From Pyrinomonadaceae bacterium (GTDB lineage: Bacteria > Acidobacteriota > Blastocatellia > Pyrinomonadales > Pyrinomonadaceae), in contig JACMLC010000094.1 of the NCBI GenBank assembly GCA_014379795.1, positions 1-33,678 on the forward strand: 33,678 nt of DNA, written 5' to 3'. The position numbers and the translations under genes were made by a program. This document shows positions 11,460-31,557 of the stretch, in pieces. Each line of letters starts with the position of its first letter. Position 1 is the first letter of the stretch. The notes beneath the pieces were generated by a model. That model saw only the letters and a program-made list of their open reading frames with translations. It was not told the origin of the DNA and did not search any database.

Positions 11460-12776
11460 TTAAGCGGAAACAGGCACTTTATCATGTTCGTGCGTGTGTG
11501 CGCCCTGCGCTGCCCCCCGGCCAAGTGCAATAGCCGCAATAGTGATGAGCAGGCAGACGATACCAGCCGCCGTAAATGTAGTGGGCGCGCCCCATCTGAC
11601 AGCGGCGTGTCCGACCGCCGGATAGGTGACGAGCCAGCAGGCGTGCGTCAACGCGAAGTGGGCTGCGTAAGCGCGCCCACGCTCCCTCTCGACCGTATGT
11701 TCTGCCAGAAGTGTCGATGACGGAATGGCGATCAGCGCCTGTCCCGCACCGTTCAATATCCAGAGGAGAGCGAAGACGAAGAGCGGCGGTTTGAGCGCGC
11801 CCGGTAAAAGGATCAATCCGAGCACGACACCGCCAAGGATGAGCGCGCGCGCAGCCCAGGCGTGCCGTCGCCCGTGCAGCACAGCGCGGTCGCGTGCGCC
11901 CTGCTCGTAACGGCCAGTCGCACGTCCCAGCATGATCGCCGCCAGCGATGAGCCGAGTCCGAGTCCTGCCATAATTACCGCGAAAGATGTTTCTCCTCGC
12001 CCGAGCACGTCACGCACATAGGCGACCGTCACGACGATGGCTGCCGCGCCGGCGGTTGCCTCTGCGAAGCTGAGCACAAGCGCCTGCCTCAGCGACGGCT
12101 CGCGCAAAAGCACGCGCGTCCCAGTCGTGATCTCCGAAAGGAAAGTGCGCAAGGAGAGCGGCGTCACGACCTTTGAGACATGCGGGACCGCAACGACAGC
12201 GACAAGCAATGCCGAGACCAAATAAGTGAAGCCGTCGAACCAGAAGACCCATCGCACGCCAAGCAGCGCCACAAGAATGCCTGCCACAGCGGGCGCAGCG
12301 ACTGCCTCTATATCTACTGCGACACGCGAAAGCGAAAGCGCCTTGACATACTGCTCATCTCCGACGATTTCAGGGATGCTCGCCTCAAAGGTCGGCGTAA
12401 AAAAAGCTGTCACGGCGTTGATGGCAAAAATCAAGGCGTAGACCTGCCATACGGTGGTGATAAATGGAAAGAGCGCCAGCAGTCCGAAACGCAGGAGATC
12501 AGCGGCGATAAGTATCTTCTTGCGGCTCAGGCGGTCGGCGATCACGCCTGCCGGTTGCGAGAAGAGGAGGAAGGCGAGGATGCGCAGCATCAGCGCATTG
12601 CCGATGACAGCCGTTGCGGATGCGCCGCCTGTGAGTTGATAGGCGAAGAGCGCAAGGCCAACCGTCGTCACACCGCTGCCAAGCAGCGAAATGATCTGCG
12701 CGCTGAACAGCAGGCGGAAGGCACGATTGCGCCAGAGCGAAATCTTCTCAACGGTTGCGGATTGGAGGTCGTCCAT
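11460..12776 (-). CDS. MFS transporter (EntS/MFS_3-like exporter) with a His-rich C-terminal tail
   Basis: 438-aa ORF, about 12 hydrophobic segments. MFS motif A: GVIADRLSRKKIL. C-terminal tail AQGAHTHEHDKVP. Starts 21 nt downstream of the RND pump gene on the same strand. Confidence 0.85.
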   Translation of the reverse strand: MDDLQSATVEKISLWRNRAFRLLFSAQIISLLGSGVTTVGLALFAYQLTGGASATAVIGNALMLRILAFLLFSQPAGVIADRLSRKKILIAADLLRFGLLALFPFITTVWQVYALIFAINAVTAFFTPTFEASIPEIVGDEQYVKALSLSRVAVDIEAVAAPAVAGILVALLGVRWVFWFDGFTYLVSALLVAVVAVPHVSKVVTPLSLRTFLSEITTGTRVLLREPSLRQALVLSFAEATAGAAAIVVTVAYVRDVLGRGETSFAVIMAGLGLGSSLAAIMLGRATGRYEQGARDRAVLHGRRHAWAARALILGGVVLGLILLPGALKPPLFVFALLWILNGAGQALIAIPSSTLLAEHTVERERGRAYAAHFALTHACWLVTYPAVGHAAVRWGAPTTFTAAGIVCLLITIAAIALGRGAAQGAHTHEHDKVPVSA

Positions 12777-12797
12777 AACGGTTGTCGCTGATACCTT

Positions 12798-15700
12798 TCA
12801 ATCCCGGGCCGGAGCAAGCTCCCGTTCTCGCGGATAGTCACGCGATGGCACTTGTGCTGTAGCGCGGCCATACTTCAGGTACAGGGCCGGAATCACGATC
12901 ATGTTGAGGAAAGTAGAAGTGACGATGCCGCCTAAGATCACGACAGCCATCGGCTGCTGAATCTCCTTGCCCGGCTCGCCCGCGCCCCACGCCAGCGGAA
13001 TTAACCCGACGCCCGTGACAATCGCCGTCATCAGGATCGGCGAAAGCCTCTCCATCGAACCCTGCACAATCGCGTCGCGAAACGGGACTCCCTCCTCCTC
13101 CATCAAATGCGTGTAATGCGAGATCAGCATGATGCCGTTGCGTGTGGCGATGCCGAACAGCGTGATGAAGCCGACGAGTGAGGCGATGGAGAGCGTTCCC
13201 CCGGAAAGGAAGACCATCACCACGCCGCCGATCAAAGCCAGCGGCAGGTTCGCCATCACCAGCGCGGCTGAGCGCGCCGATTTCAAAGCGATATAGAGCA
13301 ACAGGAAGATGCCGCCGATAGCGACGATGGAGAGCAGCGTGATGAGGCGCGAGGCTTTCTCCTGCGCCTCGAACTGCCCGCCATACTGTACGAAGTAGCC
13401 TTGCGGCAGTTGGACTTTTGTTCCGATGGCCTCGCGCACATCGTTGATGACGCTGCCCAAATCTCTATCGGCGACGTTTGCCTGAACGATGATGCGGCGC
13501 TGAACGTTCTCGCGGTTGAGGGTGTTCGGGCCTTGATCCACTCTCACTTCGGCGACCTGCCCGATAGGAACGCGCGCGCCCGTCGGCGTGTCAATCAAAG
13601 TGCGCTCGATGCTCTCCACAGATTCGCGCGACGCATCATCGTGGCGCACCAGCACGTCGTAGGTGCGCTGCTCTTCCAGGACCTGCGATGCAACGTGTCC
13701 GTTAAAGGCTGTGTCAACCGTTTCGGCTAAGTCTTCGGCTCTCAATCCGACTGCTGCTGCCGCCTGGCGGTTCATGTTGATTTGGACTTGCGGCACGCCG
13801 ACTTGCGGCTCGACGATCAGATCAACGATGCCGGGAACTCCCGCCATCTGGTCGCGTATCTCGGCAGCTTTAGTGCGTAAGGTCGCAAGGTCGGGTCCGA
13901 AAAGTTTGATGGCGATTTGCGCTCGCGTGCCTGAGAGCAGGTGGTCAATGCGGTGCGAGATGGGCTGGCCGACTTCCGCCTCGACGCCGGGGATGCGCGC
14001 GAGTCGCTGGCGCACGTCTTCCATAAACTCGGCGTGAGAGCGACTCCCCTCTTTCGTCACGACTTCGATCTCGCTGGTGTTGACGCCCGCCGCGTGCTCA
14101 TCCAATTCGGCACGCCCAGTGCGGCGAGTCGTCGAGACGACTTCAGGGACTTCATGCAGGACGGACTCGATGACATTGCCGATGCGGTTTGATTCCTTGA
14201 GGGAGGTGCCCGGCGGCATGTTGGCGTTGATGTTCAGCGTGCCTTCGTTGAACGGGGGCAGGAATTCGCGCCCCATGAACGCGAACAGCAGCATTGCGAC
14301 GAGCAGCATCGCGGCGGACGAAGCGATGATTTTATAAGGATGGCGAAGCGTCCAATTCAAGATTCGCGCGTAGCGCTTCTTCAGCCACGCGACAAGGCGT
14401 GAATCTTTCTCGTCGTGAAGCAGCTTCGAGCGACCGAGCAGGAAGTAGCAGAGCACGGGCGTCACGGTCAGCGCGACGATGAGCGAAGCCGTGATCGAGA
14501 TGATATAGGCAAAGGCGAGCGGCGCGAACATGCGACCTTCAAAGCCGCCCAAAGAGAAGAGCGGCAGGAAGACGATGACGATGATGAGCGTCGCAAAGAG
14601 GATCGAGTTTCTGATCTCGCTCGATGCGCGGAAGATGACATCTATCACGTGAGCGGGCGTCGGGCTGTGAGCGTTCTGCTTCAAACGGCGGAAGACGTTT
14701 TCGACATCTATGATCGCATCGTCCACGAGCGCGCCGATAGCGATGGCGAGGCCGCCCAAGGTCATCGTATTGATCGAAATATTGAAGTAGCTCATCACGA
14801 GAATCGCCGTGATGAGCGAGAGCGGAATCGCGGTCAAAGAGATGAACGTCGTGCGGAAGTTCCACAGGAAGAGAAACAGCACGACCGTCACCATGATGCC
14901 GCCTTCGATGATTGAAGCGCGCACGTTGCCGACAGCGCGATTGATAAAGTCGGATTGCTGGAACGCCTTCGTGTCAATCGTCACGTCCGGCGGCAGCGTC
15001 GCTTTCAAATTGGCGAGCGTCGTCTCAATCTGTTCGGTTACTTCGAGCGTGTTGGCGTTCGGCTGCTTCTGAATCGTGGCGACAACCGCCGGTTGCATGT
15101 TAAAGCTGCCGTCGCCGCGCTTCAGCGCCGCGCCCGCCTGCACCGTCGCCACGTTACTGATGAGAACGGGCACGCCGTCGCGCACGGTGATGACGGAGTT
15201 GGCGAGGTCTTCAGGCGTGTAAACGCGCGCCCGCCCTCGAATCAGGAACTCTTCGTTCGTGCGCTCAAGGAAACCGCCCGCCGCGTTCGCGTTCGAAGCC
15301 GTGACGGCTTCGACAACCTGCTCAAGCGTCAGCCCGTGATCCGCCAGCTTCGCCGGGTCAACGAGCACCTGAAACTGCTTGGTGTCGCCGCCGATAATCA
15401 TCACCTGAGAGACGCCTGTGACTCCAAGCAGGCGCGGGCGCACAGTCCAATCGGCAATCGAGCGCAACTCCATCGGTGAAGTCGTCTTGCTCGTCATCGA
15501 GATCAGCATGATCTCGCCCATCGTCGAAGAGATGGGACCCAAAACGGGCGGCGGAACTCCCGCAGGCAACCGGACTTGTTGCAATTTCTCATTGACAAGC
15601 TGGCGTGCGCGGTAGATGTCTGTGTCGAGGTTGAATTCGACGAAGACGATGGAGATGCCGATGGCCGAATTAGAGCGGACGCGATACACGCCCGCCGTCC

Positions 15701-15923
15701 CGTTCATCGCCGCTTCGATGGGCAACGTGACAAGTGATTCAACTTCCTCCGGCGCAAGACCGTGCGATTCTGTGAGAATCGTGACTGTGGGCGCAGTCAA
15801 ATCTGGGAACACATCAACCGGCGTGCGCAGCGCGACGTATCCGCCGTAGATGAGCAGCGCGACCGCCGCGATGATGACCATCAGCCGGTTACGAAGCGAC
15901 CACTGGATGATTTTATTTAACAT
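12798..15923 (-). CDS. CusA/CzcA-family heavy-metal efflux RND permease
   Basis: 1041-aa ORF. N-terminus MLNKIIQWSLRNRLMV. 12-TM RND layout with two large periplasmic loops. TM4 charged segment GALVDDAIIDVEN, typical of the HME-RND family. Confidence 0.95.
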   Translation of the reverse strand: MLNKIIQWSLRNRLMVIIAAVALLIYGGYVALRTPVDVFPDLTAPTVTILTESHGLAPEEVESLVTLPIEAAMNGTAGVYRVRSNSAIGISIVFVEFNLDTDIYRARQLVNEKLQQVRLPAGVPPPVLGPISSTMGEIMLISMTSKTTSPMELRSIADWTVRPRLLGVTGVSQVMIIGGDTKQFQVLVDPAKLADHGLTLEQVVEAVTASNANAAGGFLERTNEEFLIRGRARVYTPEDLANSVITVRDGVPVLISNVATVQAGAALKRGDGSFNMQPAVVATIQKQPNANTLEVTEQIETTLANLKATLPPDVTIDTKAFQQSDFINRAVGNVRASIIEGGIMVTVVLFLFLWNFRTTFISLTAIPLSLITAILVMSYFNISINTMTLGGLAIAIGALVDDAIIDVENVFRRLKQNAHSPTPAHVIDVIFRASSEIRNSILFATLIIVIVFLPLFSLGGFEGRMFAPLAFAYIISITASLIVALTVTPVLCYFLLGRSKLLHDEKDSRLVAWLKKRYARILNWTLRHPYKIIASSAAMLLVAMLLFAFMGREFLPPFNEGTLNINANMPPGTSLKESNRIGNVIESVLHEVPEVVSTTRRTGRAELDEHAAGVNTSEIEVVTKEGSRSHAEFMEDVRQRLARIPGVEAEVGQPISHRIDHLLSGTRAQIAIKLFGPDLATLRTKAAEIRDQMAGVPGIVDLIVEPQVGVPQVQINMNRQAAAAVGLRAEDLAETVDTAFNGHVASQVLEEQRTYDVLVRHDDASRESVESIERTLIDTPTGARVPIGQVAEVRVDQGPNTLNRENVQRRIIVQANVADRDLGSVINDVREAIGTKVQLPQGYFVQYGGQFEAQEKASRLITLLSIVAIGGIFLLLYIALKSARSAALVMANLPLALIGGVVMVFLSGGTLSIASLVGFITLFGIATRNGIMLISHYTHLMEEEGVPFRDAIVQGSMERLSPILMTAIVTGVGLIPLAWGAGEPGKEIQQPMAVVILGGIVTSTFLNMIVIPALYLKYGRATAQVPSRDYPRERELAPARD

Positions 15924-15979
15924 GACGTACAGCCTTCAGCTCTCATGTGACAGGACTTGTCCTCCTCCTGCTGGAGTGT

Positions 15980-17416
15980 TTATGTTTCATGCGAATGCAC
16001 GCCCGCATCTGCCGGTCGCAGTTCCTGCAACCTGACCTGATAAGCTCCCTGCGTGACGACGCGCTCGCCGGGGTTGAGACCGGAAAGAATCGCCACATGA
16101 GGCCCGTACTCGTCACCAACCGTCACTTCGCGCCGTTGGAACTCTTCGCCCGATAGGAGCACGTACACGATCTTTTTGCCTTCGTTATCGAGCACTGCTT
16201 CTTTCGGGATCATCATCGCCGTGACCGACTCGCCCGCATCCAGTCGCACGTTGGCCTGCATTCCGATGCGCAGAGCGCGTCCGGCATTCGGCACCTGAAA
16301 GACGACTGTGGCCGCGCGCGTCTTTTCGTCAATCACCGCGCCCACGTCCAACACGACGCCCTTGAATTCCTGTTCCGGGTAAGCGGCTGTCGTGAAAGTC
16401 GCTGAGACGTTTCCGCCCAGGCGATTTAAGTCTCGCTCGAAGATAGGAGCTTCAATCCACACCGTATCAAGATTGCTGATCTCAAGGATGGTTTCGCCCG
16501 GCGCGACCTGTTCGCCAATGGACTTGTTGACTTTCGTCACGTAGCCACCCAAAGGGGCGCGCACGGTATAACTGGAATTTGCGCTCCCGATTTGTGCATT
16601 CGCCGGGGCGACAGAGCGTGCCGAGACAAGCGCATCTCTGCGTTTGACTGCGGCGTTGTATGCTGCCTGCGCTGAATTGCGTTCAGCATCAGCGGCCTGC
16701 AATTGTCTTTGCGAGAATGCCTTTCGTTCATAGAGACGCTCTGCTCGCTCGGCCTCCTTCTGTGCCAGATCAAGCCGCACGCGCGCTGTGTCTACTTCGC
16801 CCGCCGCTGACCGCCGCTCGCCTTCAAGCCTCGCGTTCTCGACGGCAATCTGTGCATTCTGCGCCTGAACTGACGCCGCCGCCGCGCGCACCTGCGCCTG
16901 TTCGGCGGAGGTTGCTATCTGCTGCACAACGGCAATGGTCTGTCCCTGCGAGACGCGCTGACCGACGCGTGGCATCTGGTTGCCCGCGAGGATGCCGCTG
17001 ACGGGCGGCGCCACCAACGCCTGGCTGTTGGCCGCCGGCACGACCCGCCCTGTGGCGGTGATCTGCCGCGCGACCGTATGCTCTTCAACCTGCGCGAGCT
17101 TCAGGCGAATGAGCCACTGCTGCTCCATCAGGAACTTGACAGTGCCGGTCGGATTAGCGGCAGCCGGAGCTTCCGCCATCTCCTTCTTCCCCGCGCCGCG
17201 TAGAAAAAAGATATAGACGAGCGCGAAGAGCGCCACGAGCGCCACCGCCGCGACGATCAATAACCGGTTACGGTTTGAGGCGGCAGGCGAAGTCTCTTTC
17301 ACAATCGTCGTCTCTTCTTGCTCGATACGAGCTTCGCGTGTGTCTTCCGTGGAATGTTCGACACTGTGCTCAAGTTCACTTTCCTGAACCTGCTCGTCGG
17401 TTGTCGGTCTGCTCAT
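15980..17416 (-). CDS. RND efflux periplasmic adaptor (CusB/CzcB, HlyD family)
   Basis: 478-aa ORF. Acidic N-terminal extension, one TM anchor (LLIVAAVALVALFALVYIFFL), an alpha-hairpin region rich in A/Q/R, and beta-barrel domains. Its start overlaps the upstream OMF stop by 4 nt (17413-17416). Confidence 0.9.
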   Translation of the reverse strand: MSRPTTDEQVQESELEHSVEHSTEDTREARIEQEETTIVKETSPAASNRNRLLIVAAVALVALFALVYIFFLRGAGKKEMAEAPAAANPTGTVKFLMEQQWLIRLKLAQVEEHTVARQITATGRVVPAANSQALVAPPVSGILAGNQMPRVGQRVSQGQTIAVVQQIATSAEQAQVRAAAASVQAQNAQIAVENARLEGERRSAAGEVDTARVRLDLAQKEAERAERLYERKAFSQRQLQAADAERNSAQAAYNAAVKRRDALVSARSVAPANAQIGSANSSYTVRAPLGGYVTKVNKSIGEQVAPGETILEISNLDTVWIEAPIFERDLNRLGGNVSATFTTAAYPEQEFKGVVLDVGAVIDEKTRAATVVFQVPNAGRALRIGMQANVRLDAGESVTAMMIPKEAVLDNEGKKIVYVLLSGEEFQRREVTVGDEYGPHVAILSGLNPGERVVTQGAYQVRLQELRPADAGVHSHET

Positions 17417-18705
17417 TGTTTGATGTCCACTCCTGTCGCCAGCTCTAGCTGAAAAATACTCGTTTGATAATCGAATAAGGCGCGGTAATAGTTGACCCTC
17501 ACCTCGGAGCGCGTGCGCTGCGCGTCAAGCAACGTGATTAATTCCACGACGCCTTCCCGGTAAGCGGCAAGCTGTATGTCGCGGGACTCATCGGCCTGTT
17601 TGAGCAATCCGGTCTCGTAAGCCTTCACCTGCTCGCGCGCAGTTTCGTAAGCCCGATAAGCGGATTCGACTTCCGCCAGCGCGCGGTTGCGCGTTAATAG
17701 AAGATTCGTTTCGGTGACTCGGCGCTCGGCCTCTGCTCGCGCGATGCCCCCTTGATTCCGGTTGCCGAAAGGCAGAGGCACAGTCACACCGGCCAGCGCG
17801 GTATTATCCCGCCCGACCTTGCGATAGCCGACGAACGGCGTGATCTCGCCTTTCGCCCGCGAACGCTCCAATTGGAAGACTGATTCGGCGCGCGCCACCT
17901 CTGCTTCGGCCACCTTGATGTCGGGACGATTCGCGAGCGCCGTCCGGCGCAGTTGTTCAAGGTCAAGAGTGGTGTCACGGATTTCAAGTGTGCCGGCCAC
18001 GTCGAGCATGGCCGCTCGCCCATAATCAGTCTCGCCCAGAAGCTCCAGCAGTCGAACATTCGATTGACGCAGGGCGAGCGTGGCCTGAGCGATGGTCGAA
18101 TCGTACTTGACCCTCTCAAGCCGCACACGTAGCAACTCACCTTCGGCGATGTAGCCCTCCTCGAAGCGAACGGTGTTGAAGCGCACTAGCTCCGCGAAGT
18201 TGTCGCGATTCTCACGCTCTATGTTTAGGATGGTGCGCGCTAGGATCGTCTCGTAATAGGTGCGCCGTAGCTCGAACAGCCTGCGCCTGAGTACGTCCGT
18301 CAACTGAGCCTCCGCCACGGCGACTGTGCGTTCGGCGAGCTCAGCGCGTCGCTCCCGGCGGTTGCCGAGTTCGATGGGCTGCGCGACGGTGACTCCGACC
18401 TCGTAGAGATTATTAAATTGCGTCGGGCCGGAAACTCGCAGGTTCTCCGCGCTGACCGTCAATCCCGGACGCGGGAAAAGGCGCGCACTGATTCTTTCGG
18501 TTCCGGCGACGCCGACTTCGAGACGTGCGGCTTCCAACGCGAGGTTGCGTCGCATGAATTGCTCGGTCGCAGCTTCCAGAGTCAGGACACCGCTATCCTG
18601 CGTGAGCGGCAGCGAAGACGGCCCAGTAGCTGTTTGTGCCAGAGCCGAGACAGTCAGCCAGACTACGAGCACGATGATTGCTAACAATCGGAAAAATTTC
18701 GTCAC
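17413..18705 (-). CDS. TolC-family outer membrane factor (CzcC/CusC-like)
   Basis: 430-aa ORF. Signal peptide MTKFFRLLAIIVLVVWLTVSALA. OMF motif FGNRNQGGIARAEAE. Two-repeat coiled architecture. Confidence 0.9.
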   Translation of the reverse strand: MTKFFRLLAIIVLVVWLTVSALAQTATGPSSLPLTQDSGVLTLEAATEQFMRRNLALEAARLEVGVAGTERISARLFPRPGLTVSAENLRVSGPTQFNNLYEVGVTVAQPIELGNRRERRAELAERTVAVAEAQLTDVLRRRLFELRRTYYETILARTILNIERENRDNFAELVRFNTVRFEEGYIAEGELLRVRLERVKYDSTIAQATLALRQSNVRLLELLGETDYGRAAMLDVAGTLEIRDTTLDLEQLRRTALANRPDIKVAEAEVARAESVFQLERSRAKGEITPFVGYRKVGRDNTALAGVTVPLPFGNRNQGGIARAEAERRVTETNLLLTRNRALAEVESAYRAYETAREQVKAYETGLLKQADESRDIQLAAYREGVVELITLLDAQRTRSEVRVNYYRALFDYQTSIFQLELATGVDIKQ

Positions 18706-18714
18706 GGTTTGGAT

Positions 18715-19197
18715 CTACTCCACCTTGAAATCGGTTAAAGCCATCCGCTCGTCGAGCTTTTCATTCCTGATGTGAAACTCGATGTCGTAATCTCCCGCAC
18801 TCGGAATATTCACGTCTGCGACATAAATACCAGTCACTTTGCCGATGCGAGCTTTGATTTGCGCGACTTCCACGCCACCTTTGGCGCGTACGGAGAGCGT
18901 CACTTCCGCTTTCTCCACCGGTGTACCGTCTGAAAGATCGGTCAGGTGAATCAGAAACTGGCTTTGCTTTCCGGCTTTGAGAGGGTCGTACTCGAAGAAG
19001 TTTTCGATGCGGTTCGTAAACTCTGTACGAGCGAGGGCTTCCTCTTCAGGTTCGTCCTTTGCCTTCGGCTCTGCGCCACAAGCCCCTAAGCTGATTACCG
19101 CGAGCGCAAAAGCCATCAACATCATAAGACGACAGGCGGTAGTTTTTAAGGGCTTACTAAATGTGAATTGAAATGGCTTCAACAAACCGATCCTCAC
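18715..19197 (-). CDS. Lipoprotein with an Ig-like (YtkA/FixH-like?) domain; start uncertain
   Basis: 160-aa ORF from a GTG that overlaps the M56 stop by 1 nt (TAGTG). Alternative ATGs at 19125, 19122 and 19116. Lipobox ISLGAC. Beta-rich domain: FLIHLTDLSDGTPVEKAEVTLSVRAKGG...GDYDIEFHI. Confidence 0.6.
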   Translation of the reverse strand: MRIGLLKPFQFTFSKPLKTTACRLMMLMAFALAVISLGACGAEPKAKDEPEEEALARTEFTNRIENFFEYDPLKAGKQSQFLIHLTDLSDGTPVEKAEVTLSVRAKGGVEVAQIKARIGKVTGIYVADVNIPSAGDYDIEFHIRNEKLDERMALTDFKVE

Positions 19198-20279
19198 TAT
19201 TTAATAAACTGGATGATGGATTCTGCCGCCGTATGCACGGCGAGCGGCGCGTAGATGGCGGCTGCGAAGAGTGTCGTTGTAAAAACGGCAGCGATAAAGA
19301 GCGCCTCCGCATTTTGCGTTTTAGACAGTAGTCGGGCGTGTGCCTGTGTCGGCACCGCGTCGGCTAAACGGACGAGACGGCGCACGCGGCGCTCGACGCT
19401 TGGCGAATCGTCTGGAACAAACCCTGAAGCCAGAGCATCCGCCGGTCTGTTCTCGTTTGAGGTGAGAGTTTGCCGTCGCAGTTTGACAAGGGCGGAAGCC
19501 ACCTCCAGCGGAGCGGACGTGCGCCCTGCCGCTATCTCATCGCAGATCAACTCCACTTCCGCGCCGCGCCATCTCAGAATCAGACGCGAGAGCGGGAACG
19601 CAAGCGAGGCATAGCTTAGAGCGGACAGCAGTAGTTTTGCCAGATTGTCTCGACGCGTGTGGTGCGCCGCTTCGTGCTCAAGGACACCGGCTAACTCCGC
19701 CGGAGTCAGCGTGCGAAGCAGCCCGGAGGAGAGCACGAGTTTCGAGCGCCAGAAGCCCCACACGAAGGTGAACGGGTAGTCGCTCATCACAAGCCCAACG
19801 TCAAGGGCATGACGAGCCGCAGTTTGTTCGACAAGGGAGACTTGCCCCGGCGGCGGCGGGGCTGCATTCATTTCCAGTTTTTGAATCACCCGACCAACAC
19901 GCATGGAGCCGCGAATACTGGACCAGCACGCAAACAAGGCAGCACAGACCGCAAATGAAACGGTCGCGTAAGCAAGCATCGGATTAAGCTTTGCGGTCAA
20001 GTCGCTCAGGAGATGCAAGTCATGCAAGGGCGCGGTGTGCGCGGCGCGAAACGACGCTTCGCCGAGCCATGATTCAGGCAAGAGCGCGGTCGCGACGATC
20101 CACGCGGCTAAAACGGGCGGAAGAGCGAGCGTGACTGTGTAAAGGCGCGTTAAAGTGTGCGGATGGGGTTTCCAATATCCGTTCGCTGAGAGTGCTCGCG
20201 ACGACCAGGCGAAGACAAAGCCCACCAGCGCAAGCAGGGTGCTGAAGAGAATGAAATTTTCGACGGCTATAATAAACAC
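19197..20279 (-). CDS. M56-family (BlaR1/MecR1-like) membrane metalloprotease lacking an extracellular sensor domain
   Basis: 360-aa ORF. Several TM segments. Zinc motif HEXXH within LEHEAAHHTRRDN. The protein ends 12 aa after the last TM (ALFIAAVFTTTLFAAAIYAPLAV). No penicillin-binding-type domain. Confidence 0.85.
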   Translation of the reverse strand: MFIIAVENFILFSTLLALVGFVFAWSSRALSANGYWKPHPHTLTRLYTVTLALPPVLAAWIVATALLPESWLGEASFRAAHTAPLHDLHLLSDLTAKLNPMLAYATVSFAVCAALFACWSSIRGSMRVGRVIQKLEMNAAPPPPGQVSLVEQTAARHALDVGLVMSDYPFTFVWGFWRSKLVLSSGLLRTLTPAELAGVLEHEAAHHTRRDNLAKLLLSALSYASLAFPLSRLILRWRGAEVELICDEIAAGRTSAPLEVASALVKLRRQTLTSNENRPADALASGFVPDDSPSVERRVRRLVRLADAVPTQAHARLLSKTQNAEALFIAAVFTTTLFAAAIYAPLAVHTAAESIIQFIK

Positions 20280-20294
20280 TATGAACGCCTTTGC

Positions 20295-20744
20295 TTACTC
20301 GCTCGTGCTCTTACCTAGCTCGCGCCGTTTTTCCCGGATCATCTCTTCGAGCTGATTGAGCGCGCCCGCATCCTCACCAACCAGATCAACGAAAGCGGAA
20401 AGCGCGGGTTCCGTGAATTGACCGAGGAGCGCGCCCAAAACTTCCTGCGCCACGCCGCGCTCGAACTCTTCGCGCGTGTAGCGCGGCGTATAGACAAACG
20501 CCTTGCCCTGCTTCTCGCGCAAGAGATACCCTTTGCGGTGCATCCGGTCGAGCGTCGTCAACACGGTGGTGTGCGCGCTTCCGCGCCGCTGCCGCAGGTG
20601 TTCTTCGACCTCGTTGACGGTCTGCCCGGGAGCGCGCCACAGCACTTCCATGACCGCCGTCTCAAGCTCGCCGAGCACATGACCTGCGCCACGCGCGCCG
20701 GGCTTGAAACCGCGAAGTGTGATTTTAGGGTGAATACGATGCAT
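20295..20744 (-). CDS. BlaI/MecI/CopY-family winged-helix transcriptional repressor
   Basis: The ORF track starts at 20861, which runs through the promoter. The ATG at 20744 gives MHRIHPKITLRG...; an alternative GTG at 20678 gives (M)LGELE. Family pattern LGELETAVMEVLW...TVNEV...AHTTVLTTLDRMHRKGYLLREKQGKAFVYTP. No C-terminal CxCxxxxCxC motif. Confidence 0.85.
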   Translation of the reverse strand: MHRIHPKITLRGFKPGARGAGHVLGELETAVMEVLWRAPGQTVNEVEEHLRQRRGSAHTTVLTTLDRMHRKGYLLREKQGKAFVYTPRYTREEFERGVAQEVLGALLGQFTEPALSAFVDLVGEDAGALNQLEEMIREKRRELGKSTSE

Positions 20745-20786
20745 CAGAATATTTTCCCCTTCTCTGGACAACAAGGGAGAGAGCAG

Positions 20787-20820
20787 AGTATAAGAACCCA
20801 CATTAACTATTGTCAATAGT
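20787..20820 (-). promoter_or_regulatory. Sigma70-like promoter with an overlapping 15-bp perfect palindromic operator (copy A)
   Basis: Palindrome ACTATTGTCAATAGT (20806-20820). On the minus strand it contains the -35 TTGACA (20816-20811), followed by an 18-bp spacer and TATACT (20792-20787). Confidence 0.65.
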
Positions 20821-20868
20821 CGAAAAGCAAGAGGAGCAAAACCGGTCTCAGAGAAACGCATCTACACT

Positions 20869-21288
20869 ATGTTAATCGCACTCTTAACACTCTTCTTGTG
20901 GAGCTTTCTCGCCGCCACGGTGCTGCCGCTCAGCTCGGAAGCCCCTCTCATCGTCTACGTGCGCTCCTACCACCAGATAACGATTCCGGTGCTGGTGGCG
21001 ACTGTCGGGAACTACTTTGGCGCATGTACGACCTACTGGCTCGCACGGCGCACGGCTCAGGCTCTTGGCAGAGGACAGGAGGCGGCGAACAGTACGACTC
21101 GAAGCGCCAGGCTCATGCGTCGTTTCGGCCAACCCATCTTACTCCTCTCATGGGTGCCGGTCCTCGGCGACGCGCTTGTCGCCCTTGCCGGCGCGATGAG
21201 AATGCCTTTCGGGGTCTTCTCGCTCTGGATAGCCATCGGCAAGGGGCTTCGCTATCTGGCAGTGGCGTGGGCGGCTTCCGCCGTGTAG
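20869..21288 (+). CDS. YqaA-family (DedA-related) small inner-membrane protein
   Basis: 139-aa ORF. From memory it is collinear with E. coli YqaA: FLAATVLPLSSE..., GNYFG, LLLSWVPVLGD, AIGKGLRYLAVA. Divergent from the blaI-like gene, 48 nt from the palindrome. Confidence 0.8.
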   Translation: MLIALLTLFLWSFLAATVLPLSSEAPLIVYVRSYHQITIPVLVATVGNYFGACTTYWLARRTAQALGRGQEAANSTTRSARLMRRFGQPILLLSWVPVLGDALVALAGAMRMPFGVFSLWIAIGKGLRYLAVAWAASAV

Positions 21289-21441
21289 AGAAGATACAAA
21301 GCGCCACTCAACGCCATTATTACGGCCTCGCTCAGAAAGATGCGCCGGACACGCTTTTGTCCGCAGCCGGGACGGACAAAGCCGGAGTCATGACACGTCC
21401 GAGAAGCTCAGACGCTGCATGACAGCAGAAGGTTTATTCCC

Positions 21442-22065
21442 CTATACCACACGCTTGATGCTACGGTACTGACCGTTGGTCTTGAGCGTGATGGTTACTT
21501 CCGTCTCGGTGCGATTGCGCCAAAACCAACCGTGATTACCATCAAAGGGAGCGATCAGCTCGCCCGAGTCACGTTCGACCGCTCTGCCCTTGCTGAAGCT
21601 GTGGGAGGCGCCGCCCGGGCCATCCCCGTGAGTGTCATGATTTACGGGGCCGCCGGCGCTCGCCCATTCGTAGCTGGCTTTTGCGTCCTTCGACATCTCC
21701 AGCTTAATTTCGGCGCCCTCGCCGGGCTTTAGCGTGACGGTCATCTCGTCCTTCCTCAAAGCGCCGTCAGCCCCCTTCGGCGTCTGGGAAAGGGCGGTAG
21801 AAGCATCCGCTGATTGCTCAGGGGCAGGCCGTGAAGCGCCGGCAGTTCTATCCTTTTCAGCCTCGGCAGCTAGGGCCATTTTAATCTCACCCATTTGTGT
21901 CAGCCCGAGCACTCGGCCAATGCGGGTCGGGTCAATGCCATACTCACTTGGCAAAACAACTGTCACGAGGAGCACCGTGGCAACGATCATGGCAATGACG
22001 GTCGAACGCAGAAGTTGCTTGCTGCTGGGCAATTCGGCGCGGGTTGGAAGGTCGCTGTTATACAT
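21442..22065 (-). CDS. Single-pass membrane-anchored protein of unknown function, co-transcribed with HupE/UreJ
   Basis: 207-aa ORF. TM helix STVIAMIVATVLLVTVVLP, an Ala/Pro-rich linker, and a C-terminal beta-rich domain with His residues (VNHDTHGDGPGGASH, FDGNHGWFW). Starts 34 nt downstream of the hupE-like stop. Confidence 0.6.
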   Translation of the reverse strand: MYNSDLPTRAELPSSKQLLRSTVIAMIVATVLLVTVVLPSEYGIDPTRIGRVLGLTQMGEIKMALAAEAEKDRTAGASRPAPEQSADASTALSQTPKGADGALRKDEMTVTLKPGEGAEIKLEMSKDAKASYEWASAGGPVNHDTHGDGPGGASHSFSKGRAVERDSGELIAPFDGNHGWFWRNRTETEVTITLKTNGQYRSIKRVV

Positions 22066-22099
22066 AAAAATTTTCCTCGAAATTATTAGTCCTTGAATT

Positions 22100-22834
22100 T
22101 TATGAGACGAAATAGCCGGTGAGCTGGTAGCCGATGAGCATGAAACCGGCGATCATCATGATGACATTGGCGGTGTAAGCGTGTCGCAGAAAGCTGTCAG
22201 TGCGTCGCCAGTAGCCCATCACGATCAGGATCGTGGCGAGCGCCAGCAGTTGACCGATTTCGACGCCCACATTGAAAGCCAGCATATTGGGTATCAAGCC
22301 GTCCCTAGATAGCTCATACTCCTGAATCTTCGTCGCCAAACCGAAGCCGTGGAAGAGGCCGAAGATGAGTGTCGCCGCTTTTGTATTCGGCTGCACACCG
22401 AACCAACGCTGGAAAGCGCCGATGTTGTCGAGCGCCTTGTAGACGACCGATAGACCGATGATCGCGTCAATCAAGTAGCCGCTGATATTGGTGCCGAAGT
22501 AGACTCCCAGCAGCATCGTCGAAGAATGACCGATGGCAAAGAGGCTGACGTACACGCCGATGTCCTTGAGCTTGTAGAGGAAGAAGATCACACCTAACAG
22601 AAAAAGGATGTGGTCGTACCCTGTGAACATGTGCTTAGCGCCAAGATAAATGAAGGGCAGGATATTCACTCCGGTGATTTCCTGGATGTAACCCTTGTCC
22701 CCTTCGGCAACGCCGTGGGCATAAGTTGTGGCGCTAAATAGAAAAAAGCAGAACAGGCCAGCGAACACTGACAAGACGGAATACTGTCGTCGCGCACACG
22801 ACCAGCGCCGTCTCAATGAAAGCGGTAAATGCAT
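22100..22834 (-). CDS. HupE/UreJ-family metal (Ni/Co-type) transporter
   Basis: The ORF track starts at 22870, but the ATG at 22834 follows GGAGA (SD, 5-nt gap). The signal peptide ends FSATTYA, then HGVAEGD, which would leave a mature N-terminal His typical of the family. Motifs GYDHILFLLGVIFF and FHGFGLA. Confidence 0.85.
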   Translation of the reverse strand: MHLPLSLRRRWSCARRQYSVLSVFAGLFCFFLFSATTYAHGVAEGDKGYIQEITGVNILPFIYLGAKHMFTGYDHILFLLGVIFFLYKLKDIGVYVSLFAIGHSSTMLLGVYFGTNISGYLIDAIIGLSVVYKALDNIGAFQRWFGVQPNTKAATLIFGLFHGFGLATKIQEYELSRDGLIPNMLAFNVGVEIGQLLALATILIVMGYWRRTDSFLRHAYTANVIMMIAGFMLIGYQLTGYFVS

Positions 22835-22850
22835 AACAATCTCCGAAGAT

Positions 22851-22925
22851 TTATGGAATTGTGGCCGCATTCAGCAGCCGAAAACAGACAAGGGAGAAGT
22901 GTATTTTAGGGTGAATACGACGCAT
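22851..22925 (-). other. 24-codon upstream ORF (MRRIHPKIHFSLVCFRLLNAATIP) paralogous to the first 8 codons of the blaI-like gene
   Basis: My own translation. The ATG at 22925 is preceded by AGGAG with a 7-nt gap. The first 8 codons match MHRIHPKI at 20744. Whether it is translated is unknown. Confidence 0.3.
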
Positions 22926-22965
22926 CGGGATACTCCTATATCTGGACCTCAAAAGGAGAGGGCAG

Positions 22966-23000
22966 AGTATAAAGCTCCTATCAACTATTGTCAATAGTTG
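22966..23000 (-). promoter_or_regulatory. Sigma70-like promoter with an overlapping 19-bp perfect palindromic operator (copy B)
   Basis: Palindrome CAACTATTGTCAATAGTTG (22982-23000). The minus strand reads -35 TTGACA (22994-22989), a 17-bp spacer, then TATACT (22971-22966). Confidence 0.7.
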
Positions 23001-23248
23001 TAAGAAAGGCAGGTTGGGAGATGGAACTCCTACTCTTCTCTGCCCTCAGCATTTCATTGCATTGAGCGTAGCATCGCCGGTCTTATGATAGGAATCGTTG
23101 GAGTCGTCATGATAAAGTTCGTGTTGGTGATGACCTCGCGCAAATTCTCCGTGGTGATGAATTTCCGTCCGGTAGAGCAAGCAGTCTCTCTTACGTTCCT
23201 GTGTTTGAGGTGTAGCTGAATAGTAGGCTTGCCGCAGCTAACTTTATA

Positions 23249-23914
23249 ATGGCATCCATGCAGAAGCGGAAAGACAATTATATCCCGGCACTTTCCTATG
23301 ACGGGTTAACTCCGCTGTACGATTCACTCATCCGCTGGACCACACCTGAGCAGACTTTTAAGCTCCGTCTCATCGAGCAGGCTCGGATCACCAGAAATCA
23401 TCGCGTCCTCGACCTCGGCTGCGGCACGGCGACGCTTACTCTCCTTATCAAGGAAACGCATCCTGAAGCTGCGGTGGTCGGGTTGGACGGCGACCCCAAA
23501 ATTCTTCAAATCGCGGGACGGAAAGCTCTTGCAGCCAGACTAGACATTACTTTCAATCAAGGCATGTCTTATGATTTGCCATACCCTGATGCCCCCTTCG
23601 ACCGCATACTCTCAAGCCTTGTCATTCATCATTTGACGCATGAAAACAAAATCCGCACGCTTAACGAAGTGCATCGGGTTCTGAGCGACGGCGGAGAGAT
23701 GCACATCGCAGACTTCGGCAAACCGCATAATGCGTTAATGCTCGCGGCATCACTGCCTTGGCGGATGTTCGACGGCATGGAAACGACTTCAGACAACGTG
23801 CAGGGCGCGCTGCCGGAGATGATGCGACGCGCAGGGTTTATAGAGGTCCACGAATCAGCCCGTTACATGACGCTGTTCGGCACACTTTCGCTGCATGTGG
23901 CGCGAAAGCCTTAA
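23249..23914 (+). CDS. Class I SAM-dependent methyltransferase
   Basis: 221-aa ORF. Motif I VLDLGCGTATLT, post-I VVGLDGD, then FDRILSSLVIHHL and GGEMHIADF. Confidence 0.85.
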   Translation: MASMQKRKDNYIPALSYDGLTPLYDSLIRWTTPEQTFKLRLIEQARITRNHRVLDLGCGTATLTLLIKETHPEAAVVGLDGDPKILQIAGRKALAARLDITFNQGMSYDLPYPDAPFDRILSSLVIHHLTHENKIRTLNEVHRVLSDGGEMHIADFGKPHNALMLAASLPWRMFDGMETTSDNVQGALPEMMRRAGFIEVHESARYMTLFGTLSLHVARKP

Positions 23915-24507: not shown

Positions 24508-24636
24508 CTATCTCCACAGGATGTTAATCACGCTCATGTAGAGCGGAAGTCCAACGATGATGTTGAAGGGGAAAGTCAGCGCTAGAGCCATCGTCACATA
24601 CAGGCCAGGGTTCGCTTCGGGAATCGCCAGCCGCAT
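24508..24636 (-). pseudogene. 3-prime fragment (last ~42 codons) of a membrane permease gene, probably SbtA/DUF897-type, truncated at the IS remnant
   Basis: My own translation: ...[39 protein letters not shown], then a stop. Hydrophobic C-terminal TM. The coding frame is lost where IS256-transposase similarity starts on the opposite strand. The family is assigned only from its pairing with the P-II gene. Confidence 0.45.
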
Positions 24637-24925
24637 CACCCCGTTCTTCGCGTATCCTGAGGAGATTCGGAGAGTGATCTACACGACCAATGCGATTGAA
24701 TCAGTGAATATGTCTTTACGGAAGAGCATTAAGAATCTCGGGTCGTTCCCGACCGATGAGGCGACGATAAAGTTGCTCTACCTGGCGTTACAGAATGTCA
24801 GCCGGAAGTCGACGATGCCGATCAAAGAATGGAAGGCGGCGCTGAATCGCTTTGCGATTCTGTTCGAGGACCGGATGCCTGTCCTCTAGTGATGATCATT
24901 TACACAAACCTCTTGACACGCCCTC
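24637..24925 (+). mobile_element. IS256-family insertion sequence remnant (C-terminal ~85 codons of the transposase plus the right terminal repeat)
   Basis: The translation [80 protein letters not shown] matches the conserved IS256 transposase C-terminus (YTTNAIES motif). The N-terminal ~300 codons are absent. The downstream end ATTTACACAAACCTCTTGACACGCCC (about 24898-24923) resembles the IS256 right inverted repeat (TTTTACACAA...). Boundaries are approximate. Confidence 0.8.
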
Positions 24926-25109
24926 ACGCTCTGACCTTTTCATTTAAGATGCGTTCGCACTACCCACTACCGAAAATATGTTGCCGCGCTGCCGCAGAGT
25001 TTGTTATCCTCCCCGCATCGCTTCAGTCTTCACGGTGCGTCTCTACGCGACTCTTCAGATTCGCGCCGACTCAGCATTTCTATTTCCTTCACTCTGTGAG
25101 GTATCCTCA

Positions 25110-28700: not shown

Positions 28701-28769
28701 TCACGCAAAGGCGCAAAGACGCAAAGTAAGTTTGAAAAGTTTACTTTGCGTCTTTGCGCCTTTGCGTGA
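28701..28769. repeat. Perfect 29-bp inverted repeat (hairpin) built from three 8-nt direct repeats, between convergent operons
   Basis: Left arm TCACGCAAAGGCGCAAAGACGCAAAGTAA (28701-28729), 11-nt loop, right arm TTACTTTGCGTCTTTGCGCCTTTGCGTGA (28741-28769). The arms contain (A/G)CGCAAAG three times. No flanking T-run. Confidence 0.85.
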
Positions 28770-30162: not shown

Positions 30163-31557
30163 TTATTCACCCCTTCCGACGTTTTTCCAGTTCGCGCGCC
30201 AGTCGTCAGACAGCCGCCGCATGTTCTCTGCCATATAGTGCAGCCGCTTGACGATCTTATCGTCCGCAGGTCGTAGCTCGTAAATCCAGAGATTGTCGAA
30301 CTGCCATGTGAGAATGTCGAAGTATTTCTGAAACTCGCTCCAAGTGTCTTCCGGCTGCGGCAGAAGCAGCAAGTCTTTCGAGAGTTCGAACCCCGGCCCG
30401 GCGTTACCTTTCTTATCTTTGAAGGCCGGGAGCAAGGTGAGAATTTCGCTTAAGGGGCGGATGAACATCGTCATCAGGGGAAAGAAAATGGCGTTCATCA
30501 GCGCGACGGTTTGCGCCTTTGTCTTCTTGTTGCTGCCGTAGAGAAACAGCATCATCAGGAGCATCAATTCGTAAGCGTGATTGAACAGGATTGCTATCTC
30601 GCGCGTTTCGGGGCGCGTGATGAGGTTCACTTCGTCGGGCGCGGTGATGTCTGGGTGCATGCTCGTCAGAGGGTTACGCACGACGGGGCGTGCGGCATCG
30701 AAGCCGCCCATTTGACTGAGCATCGTTGTGAAGATGCAATAGTGCGTGTGCTCTAAGTATTCGGGCGGCGCGAGGACGCCCTCACCCTGCTCGACAATTT
30801 CGACAATCGCTTCAATCGCGCTGTGCAGGTCACAGACCTGTATGAGGTCTAAGCCATACTGGCTGAGGTCATCCATCGAGCCTTCGCCATATGGCGTTCC
30901 CGGCCCGCCCCACATCTCCGCGTTAAAGTCGCCGATGAATAAATTCTTCTCGCCGATTCTCTCCGTTACAATGATGAAGCCCCAAGCGAGACTCATGTAG
31001 AGGTCTTGCACAGAGGTGAAGCCGATTTCGGACAGGAGCACCTGCCTGCCTCCCGTCGCGCCGGACGCCTGCGCCGCGCTGTGCGTGAAAACTTGCGGCG
31101 CAAGCAACTGCGCGCGGATGTCCTCACGGCTGGCGATGCCGCGCGTCTTGCAGAAGTCCGGGCCGGGAGCTGGATGCGGGGCTTCAAACTCCTGAAAGCG
31201 TTTGATAGTGTCTTTGCTGAAGCGCGTCAGTTCGGATTTGATGCCGAGCTTCCCGTAGACCTCTTTGCGCTGCGGGAAGTTTGGACGCTGGAAGTTAGGC
31301 GTGCCGCCGATGGCCGAGAGAAGGTTGAGCACAAGTCCCATGTGCTCCATCTCCTGCCGCGCGACGAGCGTCATCAGCCCACCCCAGCCGCGCGTCTTTT
31401 CCAGTTGCACCTCGCTGAGTCCCTCATCGGTTGAGCGCTTCATCGTGTAGGCGGCGAACAGATACTGGCACATCAAATTATGCTCAAGCTCTGCGGCCAG
31501 ATGCAGCGTGTTGATTAAATCTTCGCGAGTGGTGAGTTCTATCGTCAATGGTTTCAC
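30163..31557 (-). CDS. Stand-alone ferritin-like domain protein (VioB/RebD C-terminal-half type)
   Basis: 464-aa ORF. HLAAELEHNLMCQYLFAAYTM and VARQEMEHMGLVLNLLSAIGG match the ferritin-like helices of the 982-aa protein and of VioB. VEQGEGVLAPPEYLEHTHY...RPVVRNPL parallels VioB TDQGEGG..SPHYEHSHF...LPALRNPVL. Confidence 0.85.
   Translation of the reverse strand: MKPLTIELTTREDLINTLHLAAELEHNLMCQYLFAAYTMKRSTDEGLSEVQLEKTRGWGGLMTLVARQEMEHMGLVLNLLSAIGGTPNFQRPNFPQRKEVYGKLGIKSELTRFSKDTIKRFQEFEAPHPAPGPDFCKTRGIASREDIRAQLLAPQVFTHSAAQASGATGGRQVLLSEIGFTSVQDLYMSLAWGFIIVTERIGEKNLFIGDFNAEMWGGPGTPYGEGSMDDLSQYGLDLIQVCDLHSAIEAIVEIVEQGEGVLAPPEYLEHTHYCIFTTMLSQMGGFDAARPVVRNPLTSMHPDITAPDEVNLITRPETREIAILFNHAYELMLLMMLFLYGSNKKTKAQTVALMNAIFFPLMTMFIRPLSEILTLLPAFKDKKGNAGPGFELSKDLLLLPQPEDTWSEFQKYFDILTWQFDNLWIYELRPADDKIVKRLHYMAENMRRLSDDWRANWKNVGRGE

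Follow-up and report, generated by a model that had tools for sequence, protein, structure and literature searches.

We analysed a 33,678-nt stretch of DNA from a soil acidobacterium of the Pyrinomonadaceae (contig JACMLC010000094.1; 'the window' below means this whole stretch of 33.7 kb), which carries an operator-promoter-leader module twice on its minus strand. Copy A precedes the gene of a repressor of the BlaI/MecI/CopY family (blaI) and copy B that of a HupE/UreJ-type membrane protein (hupE). With a probability of about 0.7, we consider that the two copies are one duplicated sigma-70-type promoter, that the dyad which it contains (GACTAT-N5-ATAGTY) is the operator of the repressor, that the start-codon block of copy B is a relic of blaI, and that repression is relieved by a membrane protease encoded next to blaI. 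The elements of the two copies, in window positions, are the following:

20806..20820, minus strand: putative operator A, dyad ACTATTGACAATAGT in the context GACTAT-N5-ATAGTT, overlapping the -35 of the blaI promoter
20787..20816, minus strand: promoter A, -35 TTGACA (20816-20811), 18-nt spacer, -10 TATACT (20792-20787)
20745..20786, minus strand: leader A, with a CTCTCC box just 3′ of the -10, TCCAGA and the Shine-Dalgarno sequence GGGG (20759-20756)
20714..20745, minus strand: block A, GATGCATCGTATTCACCCTAAAATCACACTTC, the true start of the repressor gene (MHRIHPKITL...)
22982..23000, minus strand: putative operator B, the same dyad lengthened to a 19-bp palindrome, CAACTATTGACAATAGTTG, overlapping the -35 of the hupE promoter
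22966..22994, minus strand: promoter B, -35 TTGACA (22994-22989), 17-nt spacer, -10 TATACT (22971-22966)
22896..22926, minus strand: block B, GATGCGTCGTATTCACCCTAAAAT-ACACTTC, eight blaI codons, then a frameshifting 1-nt deletion, beyond which the sequence is unrelated to blaI

A preliminary description of this DNA had proposed such a duplicated module, and all the blocks that it described were recovered. Copy A (20714-20822) and copy B (22896-23000) show 88 identities over the 111 columns of a global alignment and differ at 23. Local alignment of the two 161-nt regions gave a score of 62, far above what 161-nt windows paired at random within this sequence reach (10.7 +/- 2.2, maximum 36). The best of these random pairs came from five FG-GAP-type repeats of about 135 nt (7881-8482) within a 452-aa open reading frame (ORF). 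Three shared sequences occur exactly twice in the window, for chance expectations calculated with up to three mismatches: ACTATTGACAATAGT at 20806-20820 and 22984-22998 (expectation 0.24), TCGTATTCACCCTAAAAT (0.01) and TTATACTCTGCNCTCTCC (well under one). The longest exact stretch common to both copies is 18 nt. Identity is unevenly distributed: counted manually on the alignment of A with B, it amounts to 17/18 in the operator, 5/11 in the spacer, 17/18 in the -10 together with the CTCTCC box, 19/32 in the leader and 30/32 in the start-codon block, which is indeed better conserved than the leader, as had been noted.

Upon scanning the minus strand for promoters, copies A and B each matched TTGACA-17/18-TATACT at 11 of 12 positions, the -35 lying within the dyad ACTATTGACAATAGT. 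The TAnAnT hexamer and its spacing are preserved across paralogous and orthologous modules, and the CTCTCC box is present in most of the 20 modules compared. That regions A and B are paralogous copies of one sigma-70-type promoter on the minus strand is thus supported; transcription from copy A would be expected to start near 20780. The full sites read GACTAT-TGACA-ATAGTT in copy A and AACTAT-TGACA-ATAGTT in copy B. Both the 19-bp extent of palindrome B (22982-23000) and the 48-nt distance between palindrome A and a divergent gene, of the VTT/DedA type with its ATG at 20869, agree with the preliminary description.

To follow the dyad in relatives, 80 genomic loci with a blaI orthologue were fetched with flanks up to 8-10 kb of related contigs (891 kb in all), the closest being metagenome-assembled genomes of Pyrinomonadaceae (Acidobacteriota, Blastocatellia). 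Dyads upstream of blaI were counted in the 77 loci with enough upstream sequence. In 74 of these 77 Blastocatellia/Pyrinomonadaceae loci, ACTA-N7-TAGT precedes codon 1 of blaI by 41-91 nt (median 71), with the consensus cGACTAYTGACnRTAGTTg. The rest of the 891 kb contained 34 further matches: 6 before hupE, 1 in a hupE leader, 24 at one fixed place near the junction of the M56 protease and ytkA genes, and just 3 elsewhere. Positions 5 and 11 of the dyad combine freely, C-A and T-G combinations included, and this independent variation favours a protein-binding site over an RNA hairpin.

A dyad also lies upstream of hupE in L001/L004, L003, L007, L009, L013, L033, L038 and L089, that is, in every locus where hupE and its partner gene p207 stand upstream of blaI with enough upstream sequence available. 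Six of these loci (L001/L004, L003, L007, L009, L033 and L038) have a second dyad-bearing promoter ahead of blaI, and the dyad before blaI is degenerate in L089. L013 has a single operator, before hupE; its blaI gene follows p207 by 48 nt and hupE-p207-blaI form one operon, which places these genes in one regulatory unit. The number of operators varies in other loci as well: the L009 hupE leader contains a second dyad (815-829) and L050 has two adjacent dyads before blaI (7303, 7323). In L085, a TTGACA-17-TAGACT promoter is retained before hupE (about 30-75) with a degenerate dyad.

A two-promoter regulon of the BlaI-like repressor, as first suggested from the window sequence, is the best reading of these comparisons: the dyad accompanies blaI almost throughout, stands before hupE wherever hupE-p207 precedes blaI, and equals experimentally defined BlaI-family motifs in half-site and spacing. 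We consider the dyad a strong candidate operator of a BlaI-family type already documented, to which the repressor of the window would bind. The duplication is real, and it is meaningful as an extension of the regulon.

About 24 distant loci (L031, L036, L054 and L074 among them) have a dyad at the fixed third place, some 1.56 kb past the blaI start and between ytkA and the protease gene. There the dyad is a perfect ACTAY-N5-RTAGT, mostly non-coding, with the same arms around another centre (e.g. ACTACCGCTGGTAGT) devoid of TTGACA. Scanning the window with ACTAY-N5-RTAGT yielded two 10/10 sites, which are operators A and B, and one 9/10 site:

19129..19143, minus strand: candidate third, weaker operator, ACTACCGCCTGTCGT, with one mismatch; the sole 9/10 site of the window, at the 5′ end of the ytkA-like ORF

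Other Pyrinomonadaceae resemble the window in that their third-place dyad has one mismatch and falls inside the 5′ end of the annotated ytkA ORF; in several of the distant loci the perfect dyad comes after a terminator-like hairpin. The third dyad may be the mark of a promoter with its own control; another possibility is a roadblock for the efflux genes. Another palindrome, at 31538-31552, has three mismatches with both arms wrong (ACCA...TAGA) and was treated as a chance occurrence.

The motif closest to the dyad was defined in Clostridium thermocellum, where BlaI_0696 recognises inverted GTCTAT repeats 5 nt apart and BlaI_1845 recognises GACTAT, as determined by DNA affinity purification sequencing (DAP-seq) and electrophoretic mobility shift assay (EMSA); each represses its own operon, which encodes a BlaR1-like protein (PMC8457756). 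Half-site and spacing are the same as in GACTAT-N5-ATAGTY, and the C. thermocellum regulons are likewise small (one to three operons). These regulons are read as concerned with beta-lactams or the cell wall, in another phylum, whereas here a heavy-metal RND pump and a HupE cassette are involved; binding was established by DAP-seq and EMSA there and is predicted here. The mecA operator of Staphylococcus aureus, GACTACATTTGTAGTA, has ACTAC/GTAGT half-sites (PMC1935004); it shares these arms with the dyad, with one base less between them.

In copy A, the start-codon block opens a true repressor ORF, as had been proposed; a small correction places the blaI ATG at 20744-20742. The protein begins with an extension, M-x-R-I-x-P-K-I-T-L-R-G-F-K-P-G-A-R-G, ahead of the Pfam domain, common to more than 100 homologues of 144-154 aa, and 24 aligned sequences agree throughout at K7, I8, R11, F13 and G19. 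This basic extension of 23 residues (20676-20744; M.RI.PKITLRGFKPGARGAGHV), conserved in the BlaI subfamily concerned, is missing from all solved BlaI/MecI structures. It might serve as an arm that contacts DNA, or as a signal for cleavage or degradation.

The preliminary description had taken the conservation of the start-codon block as a hint of a second functional element, such as an additional operator, an RNA element or a regulatory leader peptide. This was not confirmed. In or near the block, the best 15-mer matched the operator pattern at 7 of 10 positions; Rfam gave no match on 20200-23400 up to E = 1; and leader plus block folded no better than shuffled sequences (z +0.27 and +0.05). 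Among 78 blaI orthologues, third-codon entropy for four-fold-type residues is 1.67 bits in codons 4-25 and 1.67 bits in codons 26-140, and that for two-fold residues, with the same codon sets, is 0.91 vs 0.93. Since synonymous sites are equally variable in both parts, no nucleotide-level element is hidden in the start of blaI. The better preservation of the block relative to the leader would be due in large part to the protein constraint on copy A, with drift in copy B only, while the leader drifts in both copies; recent copying between the two modules may have contributed. The extra similarity at the start codon is most likely a leftover of copying, not a second control element.

Two further, overlapping features are found in the hupE leader:

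22835..22895, minus strand: hupE-proximal leader, ancestral and not derived from blaI, with the Shine-Dalgarno sequence GGAG (22844-22841)
22851..22925, minus strand: upstream ORF (uORF) of 24 codons, MRRIHPKIHFSLVCFRLLNAATIP, with the Shine-Dalgarno sequence AGGAG 7 nt upstream of its ATG

Ten hupE leaders were each tested for a fragment of the blaI 5′ end of the same genome, by local alignment compared with shuffles. Of the ten, just two gave a significant remnant: the window (z = 14) and its closest relative, L003 (z = 14.3; 99% BlaI identity). The L003 remnant extends to about codon 18 with 35 of 43 positions identical (81%), and is both longer and more diverged than that of the window. 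No remnant was detected in the other eight leaders tested; L001 (97% BlaI identity) has a short hupE leader with no blaI fragment. Apparent matches in L013 and L038 were no better than the best shuffles, and remnants read by eye in L007, L009 and L084 were not significant. The hupE-proximal 60 nt or so have a homologue in the leader of L084 (45 of 59 identical, z = 10.6) and, for part of their length, in that of L009. In the simplest history, a copy of the blaI promoter, together with a stub of blaI, would have been placed on an existing hupE leader to become the hupE promoter, the stub then decaying.

The uORF of copy B runs from an ATG at 22925-22923 to a TAA at 22853-22851, ahead of the hupE ATG at 22834. 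The 24-codon ORF announced in the preliminary description is thus present, its distance to the hupE start being 16 nt by our count instead of 17. In L003 the corresponding uORF has 65 codons and ends at the same TAA beside the hupE ribosome-binding site. No equivalent starting from a blaI-like start was found in the leaders of L001, L013, L033, L038 or L089, and in L084 the DNA is homologous with the frame broken by stop codons. A conserved leader peptide was rejected on the basis of this comparison, and for annotation the short ORF upstream of hupE should be regarded as a gene fragment, not as a conserved gene.

The full 137-nt leader of copy B folds at -32.7 kcal/mol (z = -2.3; 2 of 200 shuffles as good). 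In the predicted fold, ACAAUUCC pairs with hupE GGAGAUUGU and the Shine-Dalgarno sequence is masked by the last uORF codons; homologous hupE leaders were too few for covariation analysis. RNAalifold run on 14 blaI leaders found no consensus structure. The CTCTCC box, at the predicted mRNA 5′ end, is complementary to the Shine-Dalgarno sequence (AGGGAGGAG and similar; window 20756-20782), as also seen in the blaI leaders of L001, L003, L008, L009, L019 and L084, which suggests a masking 5′ hairpin. Such a hairpin, which can be made out by eye in several blaI leaders, is unproven: single folds were not significant (z values of +0.27, +0.05, -1.3 and -1.2), in addition to the RNAalifold result on the 14 leaders. 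The hupE translation-initiation region, AAATC(N1-2)CGGAGATTGTTATG (22834-22856), is conserved in L001, L003, L007, L009 and L086. L086, with no blaI in the fetched region, has the same hupE initiation sequence, where AAUCU/AGAUU can pair around the Shine-Dalgarno sequence.

These leader data bear on two alternatives to a mere relic in copy B. The uORF could be functional, either through coupling, ribosomes that stop 16 nt before the hupE ATG opening the hairpin that hides the Shine-Dalgarno sequence, or as a regulatory leader peptide. The good AGGAG retained in copy B despite its diverged surroundings would fit, as would the TAA shared with L003, where the frame stays open for 65 codons, and the fold with its paired hupE Shine-Dalgarno sequence. 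We find it unlikely all the same, given that the uORF is absent from five relatives and interrupted in L084, that the window and L003 peptides agree only in their first 8 and roughly last 3 residues, that no stalling motif could be recognised in it, and that a 24-codon open frame is estimated to arise by chance about once in three. A role of the 27-31-nt block as a cis element of both transcripts (second operator, RNA element or translation-initiation enhancer) seems to us highly improbable. It would account for 30/32 identity next to 19/32 in the adjacent leader, and some BlaI-family targets do have two dyads (those of C. thermocellum, the L009 hupE leader, L050). The block itself, however, offers no 15-mer above 7/10, no Rfam match and no folding beyond that of shuffles; the third positions of codons 4-25 are free in the 78 orthologues, and the fragment went undetected in 8 of the 10 hupE leaders.

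Two other alternatives concern the dyad and the duplication themselves. MerR-type regulators have their sites in long-spacer promoters, between the -35 and the -10. The window encodes a MerR-type regulator, and the central TTGAC of the dyad is accounted for by the -35 alone; the dyad might thus belong to another regulator or be a mere conserved promoter feature around the -35. This is very unlikely, because the outer ACTA/TAGT arms are invariant and not just the -35, the same arms recur at the M56/ytkA junction around a centre without TTGACA, the placement differs from that of a MerR site, and the dyad accompanies a blaI orthologue in 74 of 77 loci with the half-site and spacing of known BlaI-family motifs. 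Finally, the duplication or the gene order could be an assembly artefact of a metagenomic contig, since the window order, with the VTT gene between p207 and blaI, is unlike that of all relatives. An 18-nt exact repeat, the longest shared here, is too short to mislead common assemblers, and 23 of the 111 aligned columns distinguish the copies. Independent assemblies (L001, L003, L007, L009, L033 and L038) also carry a dyad promoter before both hupE and blaI, leaving an artefact a negligible chance.

The genes downstream of copy A, a seven-gene minus-strand run from blaI through an MFS transporter gene, are those expected to be controlled by the repressor:

20295..20744, minus strand: BlaI/MecI/CopY-family repressor gene (blaI), 149 aa, no cysteine, PF03965 E = 1.5e-25
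19197..20279, minus strand: membrane zinc metalloprotease of the M48/M56 type (BlaR1-like), 360 aa, HEAAH motif
11460..19197, minus strand: rest of operon A, encoding a YtkA-like lipoprotein, an outer-membrane factor, a membrane-fusion protein, a CusA/CzcA-family RND pump and an MFS transporter

The winged-helix domain of the repressor (PF03965, Penicillinase_R) covers residues 24-137 with 90.2 bits against a cut-off of 22.6. Structure matches are 2G9W (the closest solved, aligned from residue 24), 1P6R and 1OKR. The protease gene starts 16 nt downstream of blaI, and its product matches PF01435 with 41.4 bits (cut-off 20.3). No penicillin-binding transpeptidase domain (PF00905) was found on the 360-aa protease, whose profile matches are to M48/M56 only, and no beta-lactamase or penicillin-binding protein gene was seen among the scanned ORFs of the window. 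The pump scores 890 bits with TIGR00914 (cut-off 701). The order blaI, M56 protease, ytkA, outer-membrane factor, membrane-fusion protein and RND pump is retained in most of the 80 loci. The protease is presumed to be both signal sensor and anti-repressor.

This arrangement recalls the BlaI/BlaR1 and MecI/MecR1 systems of Staphylococcus aureus and Bacillus licheniformis, with a winged-helix repressor, a dyad over the promoter and a neighbouring membrane zinc protease, and with proteolytic derepression as the mechanism in the model. Unlike BlaR1 and MecR1, the protease is without a penicillin-binding domain and the regulon includes neither beta-lactamase nor PBP2a; unlike the solved BlaI and MecI, the repressor carries the 23-residue N-terminal extension. 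About 96% of M56 proteins are encoded within five genes of a BlaI-like gene, and BlaR-like proteins without a penicillin-binding domain, whose signals are unknown, form the majority of the family (PMC13492132). CenIR of Clostridioides difficile is of this kind, pairing an M56-type protease devoid of the beta-lactam-binding domain with a BlaI-like repressor that has a small regulon (PMC13492132). CenIR is essential and controls cell-envelope genes, whereas metal-transport genes make up the regulon here and hint at a candidate for the signal.

Control of metal-transport genes by a PF03965 protein is also a property of the CopY/TcrY copper repressors, and TIGR02698 (CopY/TcrY) is the best NCBIfam match of our repressor. 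CopY/TcrY proteins have a C-terminal metal site, CxCxxxxCxC. A repressor of this type is ruled out by the lack of any cysteine in the 149 aa and by a TIGR02698 score of 51.7 bits, far below the cut-off of 121.95; in addition, a protease gene follows the repressor gene and the cop box TACAnnTGTA is absent. Full-text searches of the literature found nothing specific on BlaI-type control of czc/HME-RND pumps. As for the origin of copy B, the capture of promoters by segmental duplication, which is a pattern general in evolution and does not define a family, similarly puts a promoter and the first codons of the donor before an unrelated gene, with the fragment decaying in related lineages. Here the donor and recipient promoters remain under one repressor, so that the copy extends the regulon.

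Several observations weigh against a duplicated BlaI promoter with protease-relieved repression. C. thermocellum targets carry two dyads (four protomers) each, and here there is one per promoter. The canonical staphylococcal/Bacillus core, TACANNTGTA (PMC1935004), is absent: the window sites are ACTAT-TGACA-ATAGT and the related sites ACTAC-N5-GTAGT, with TAY/RTA triplets 5 nt apart and not 4. The protease reaches 30.9 bits with PF05569 (M56), marginally under the cut-off of 31, although PF05569 is recorded for its orthologues. The size of the regulon is judged within the 33.7 kb of the window, which is our view of this genome. Lastly, the blocks differ at 2 of 32 positions where about 20% would be expected if copy B alone had drifted (binomial p about 0.03), an excess of similarity that requires either recent gene conversion or some weak function of the block. 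A recent gene-conversion patch between the modules is plausible. Copy A is a mosaic of P1-type and P2-type signatures, which hints at conversion and is suggestive only. Shared derived states as proof of conversion from B to A are weakened by other orthologues that also start with MRRIHPKI, MRSIHPKI or MQRIHPKI.

With one duplicated promoter under the BlaI-like repressor, the circuit would operate as follows. A repressor dimer on the dyad would occlude the -35 and block RNA polymerase at both promoters, thereby shutting its own operon (blaI, M48/M56 protease, ytkA-like gene, CzcCBA-type RND pump and MFS transporter) as well as hupE-p207. A signal, most likely metal or envelope stress in view of the regulon content, would activate the membrane metalloprotease encoded by the adjacent gene; the protease would inactivate the repressor, and both operons would be derepressed together. 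The hupE promoter would have arisen by copying of the blaI promoter with the first blaI codons, and the relic in copy B, still equipped with its ribosome-binding site, would open the short uORF. In a broader and distinctly more tentative version, the repressor and the domain-less M48/M56 protease would sense metal or metal-induced envelope stress and, via operators at up to three places per locus, induce the CzcCBA-type pump and HupE/p207, with the uORF perhaps co-opted for coupling to hupE.

In essence, the locus holds a BlaI/BlaR-type circuit of the ordinary autoregulated sort, to which duplication has added a captured promoter, and the link with heavy-metal efflux is its more interesting part. 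Together with some 80 Blastocatellia relatives, the locus gives one BlaIR branch a precise candidate operator, ACTAY-N5-RTAGT, and a defined output, namely a heavy-metal RND pump, a YtkA-like lipoprotein and, in one clade, the HupE cassette, along with a plausible class of signal. If true, the metal-sensing reading would tell, for one branch of the large and mostly uncharacterised BlaIR family, which class of signal it answers to and what its output is. The locus also illustrates how a regulon can grow, a promoter-operator unit being copied, with a stub of the repressor gene, before another operon.

Copy B and the region between the two copies border the following genes:

21442..22834, minus strand: operon B, HupE_UreJ_2 membrane protein (22100-22834, PF13795 E = 9e-55) and p207 (21442-22065)
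20869..21288, plus strand: VTT/DedA-type gene, PF09335, divergent from promoter A and convergent with operon B

The p207 product is a 207-aa membrane-anchored protein with no family match, the C-terminal half of which is rich in histidine. hupE-p207 is a widespread two-gene cassette, with 68-91% HupE identity across 80 metagenomic contigs retrieved (L084-L163). Outside the repressor clade it is usually without blaI, often inside or just after heavy-metal RND operons, and it would have been recruited into the regulon of the repressor in this clade. VTT orthologues in L001 (7989-8417), L013 and L089 are divergent from the hupE promoter instead. Conserved adjacency to the dyad suggests that the VTT gene may also be under the repressor. 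Its position between p207 and blaI in the window reflects a local rearrangement, with breakpoints that fall at the repeated promoter modules.

Elsewhere, the window encodes the MerR regulator, a P-type ATPase with a YHS domain and a cupredoxin, and the neighbourhood forms an island of metal-homeostasis genes. Mobile-element activity is indicated 1.5 kb from copy B by a fragment of a Mutator-family transposase (24557-24889) that matches the C-terminal part of the profile only; this fragment adjoins the gene of a 1026-aa protein with a Ferritin-like domain (24978-28058; PF12902). Further along, convergent ORFs are separated by a perfect inverted repeat of 29 nt (28701-28769; TCACGCAAAGGCGCAAAGACGCAAAGTAA plus its complement, 11-nt spacer) with internal GCAAAG repeats.

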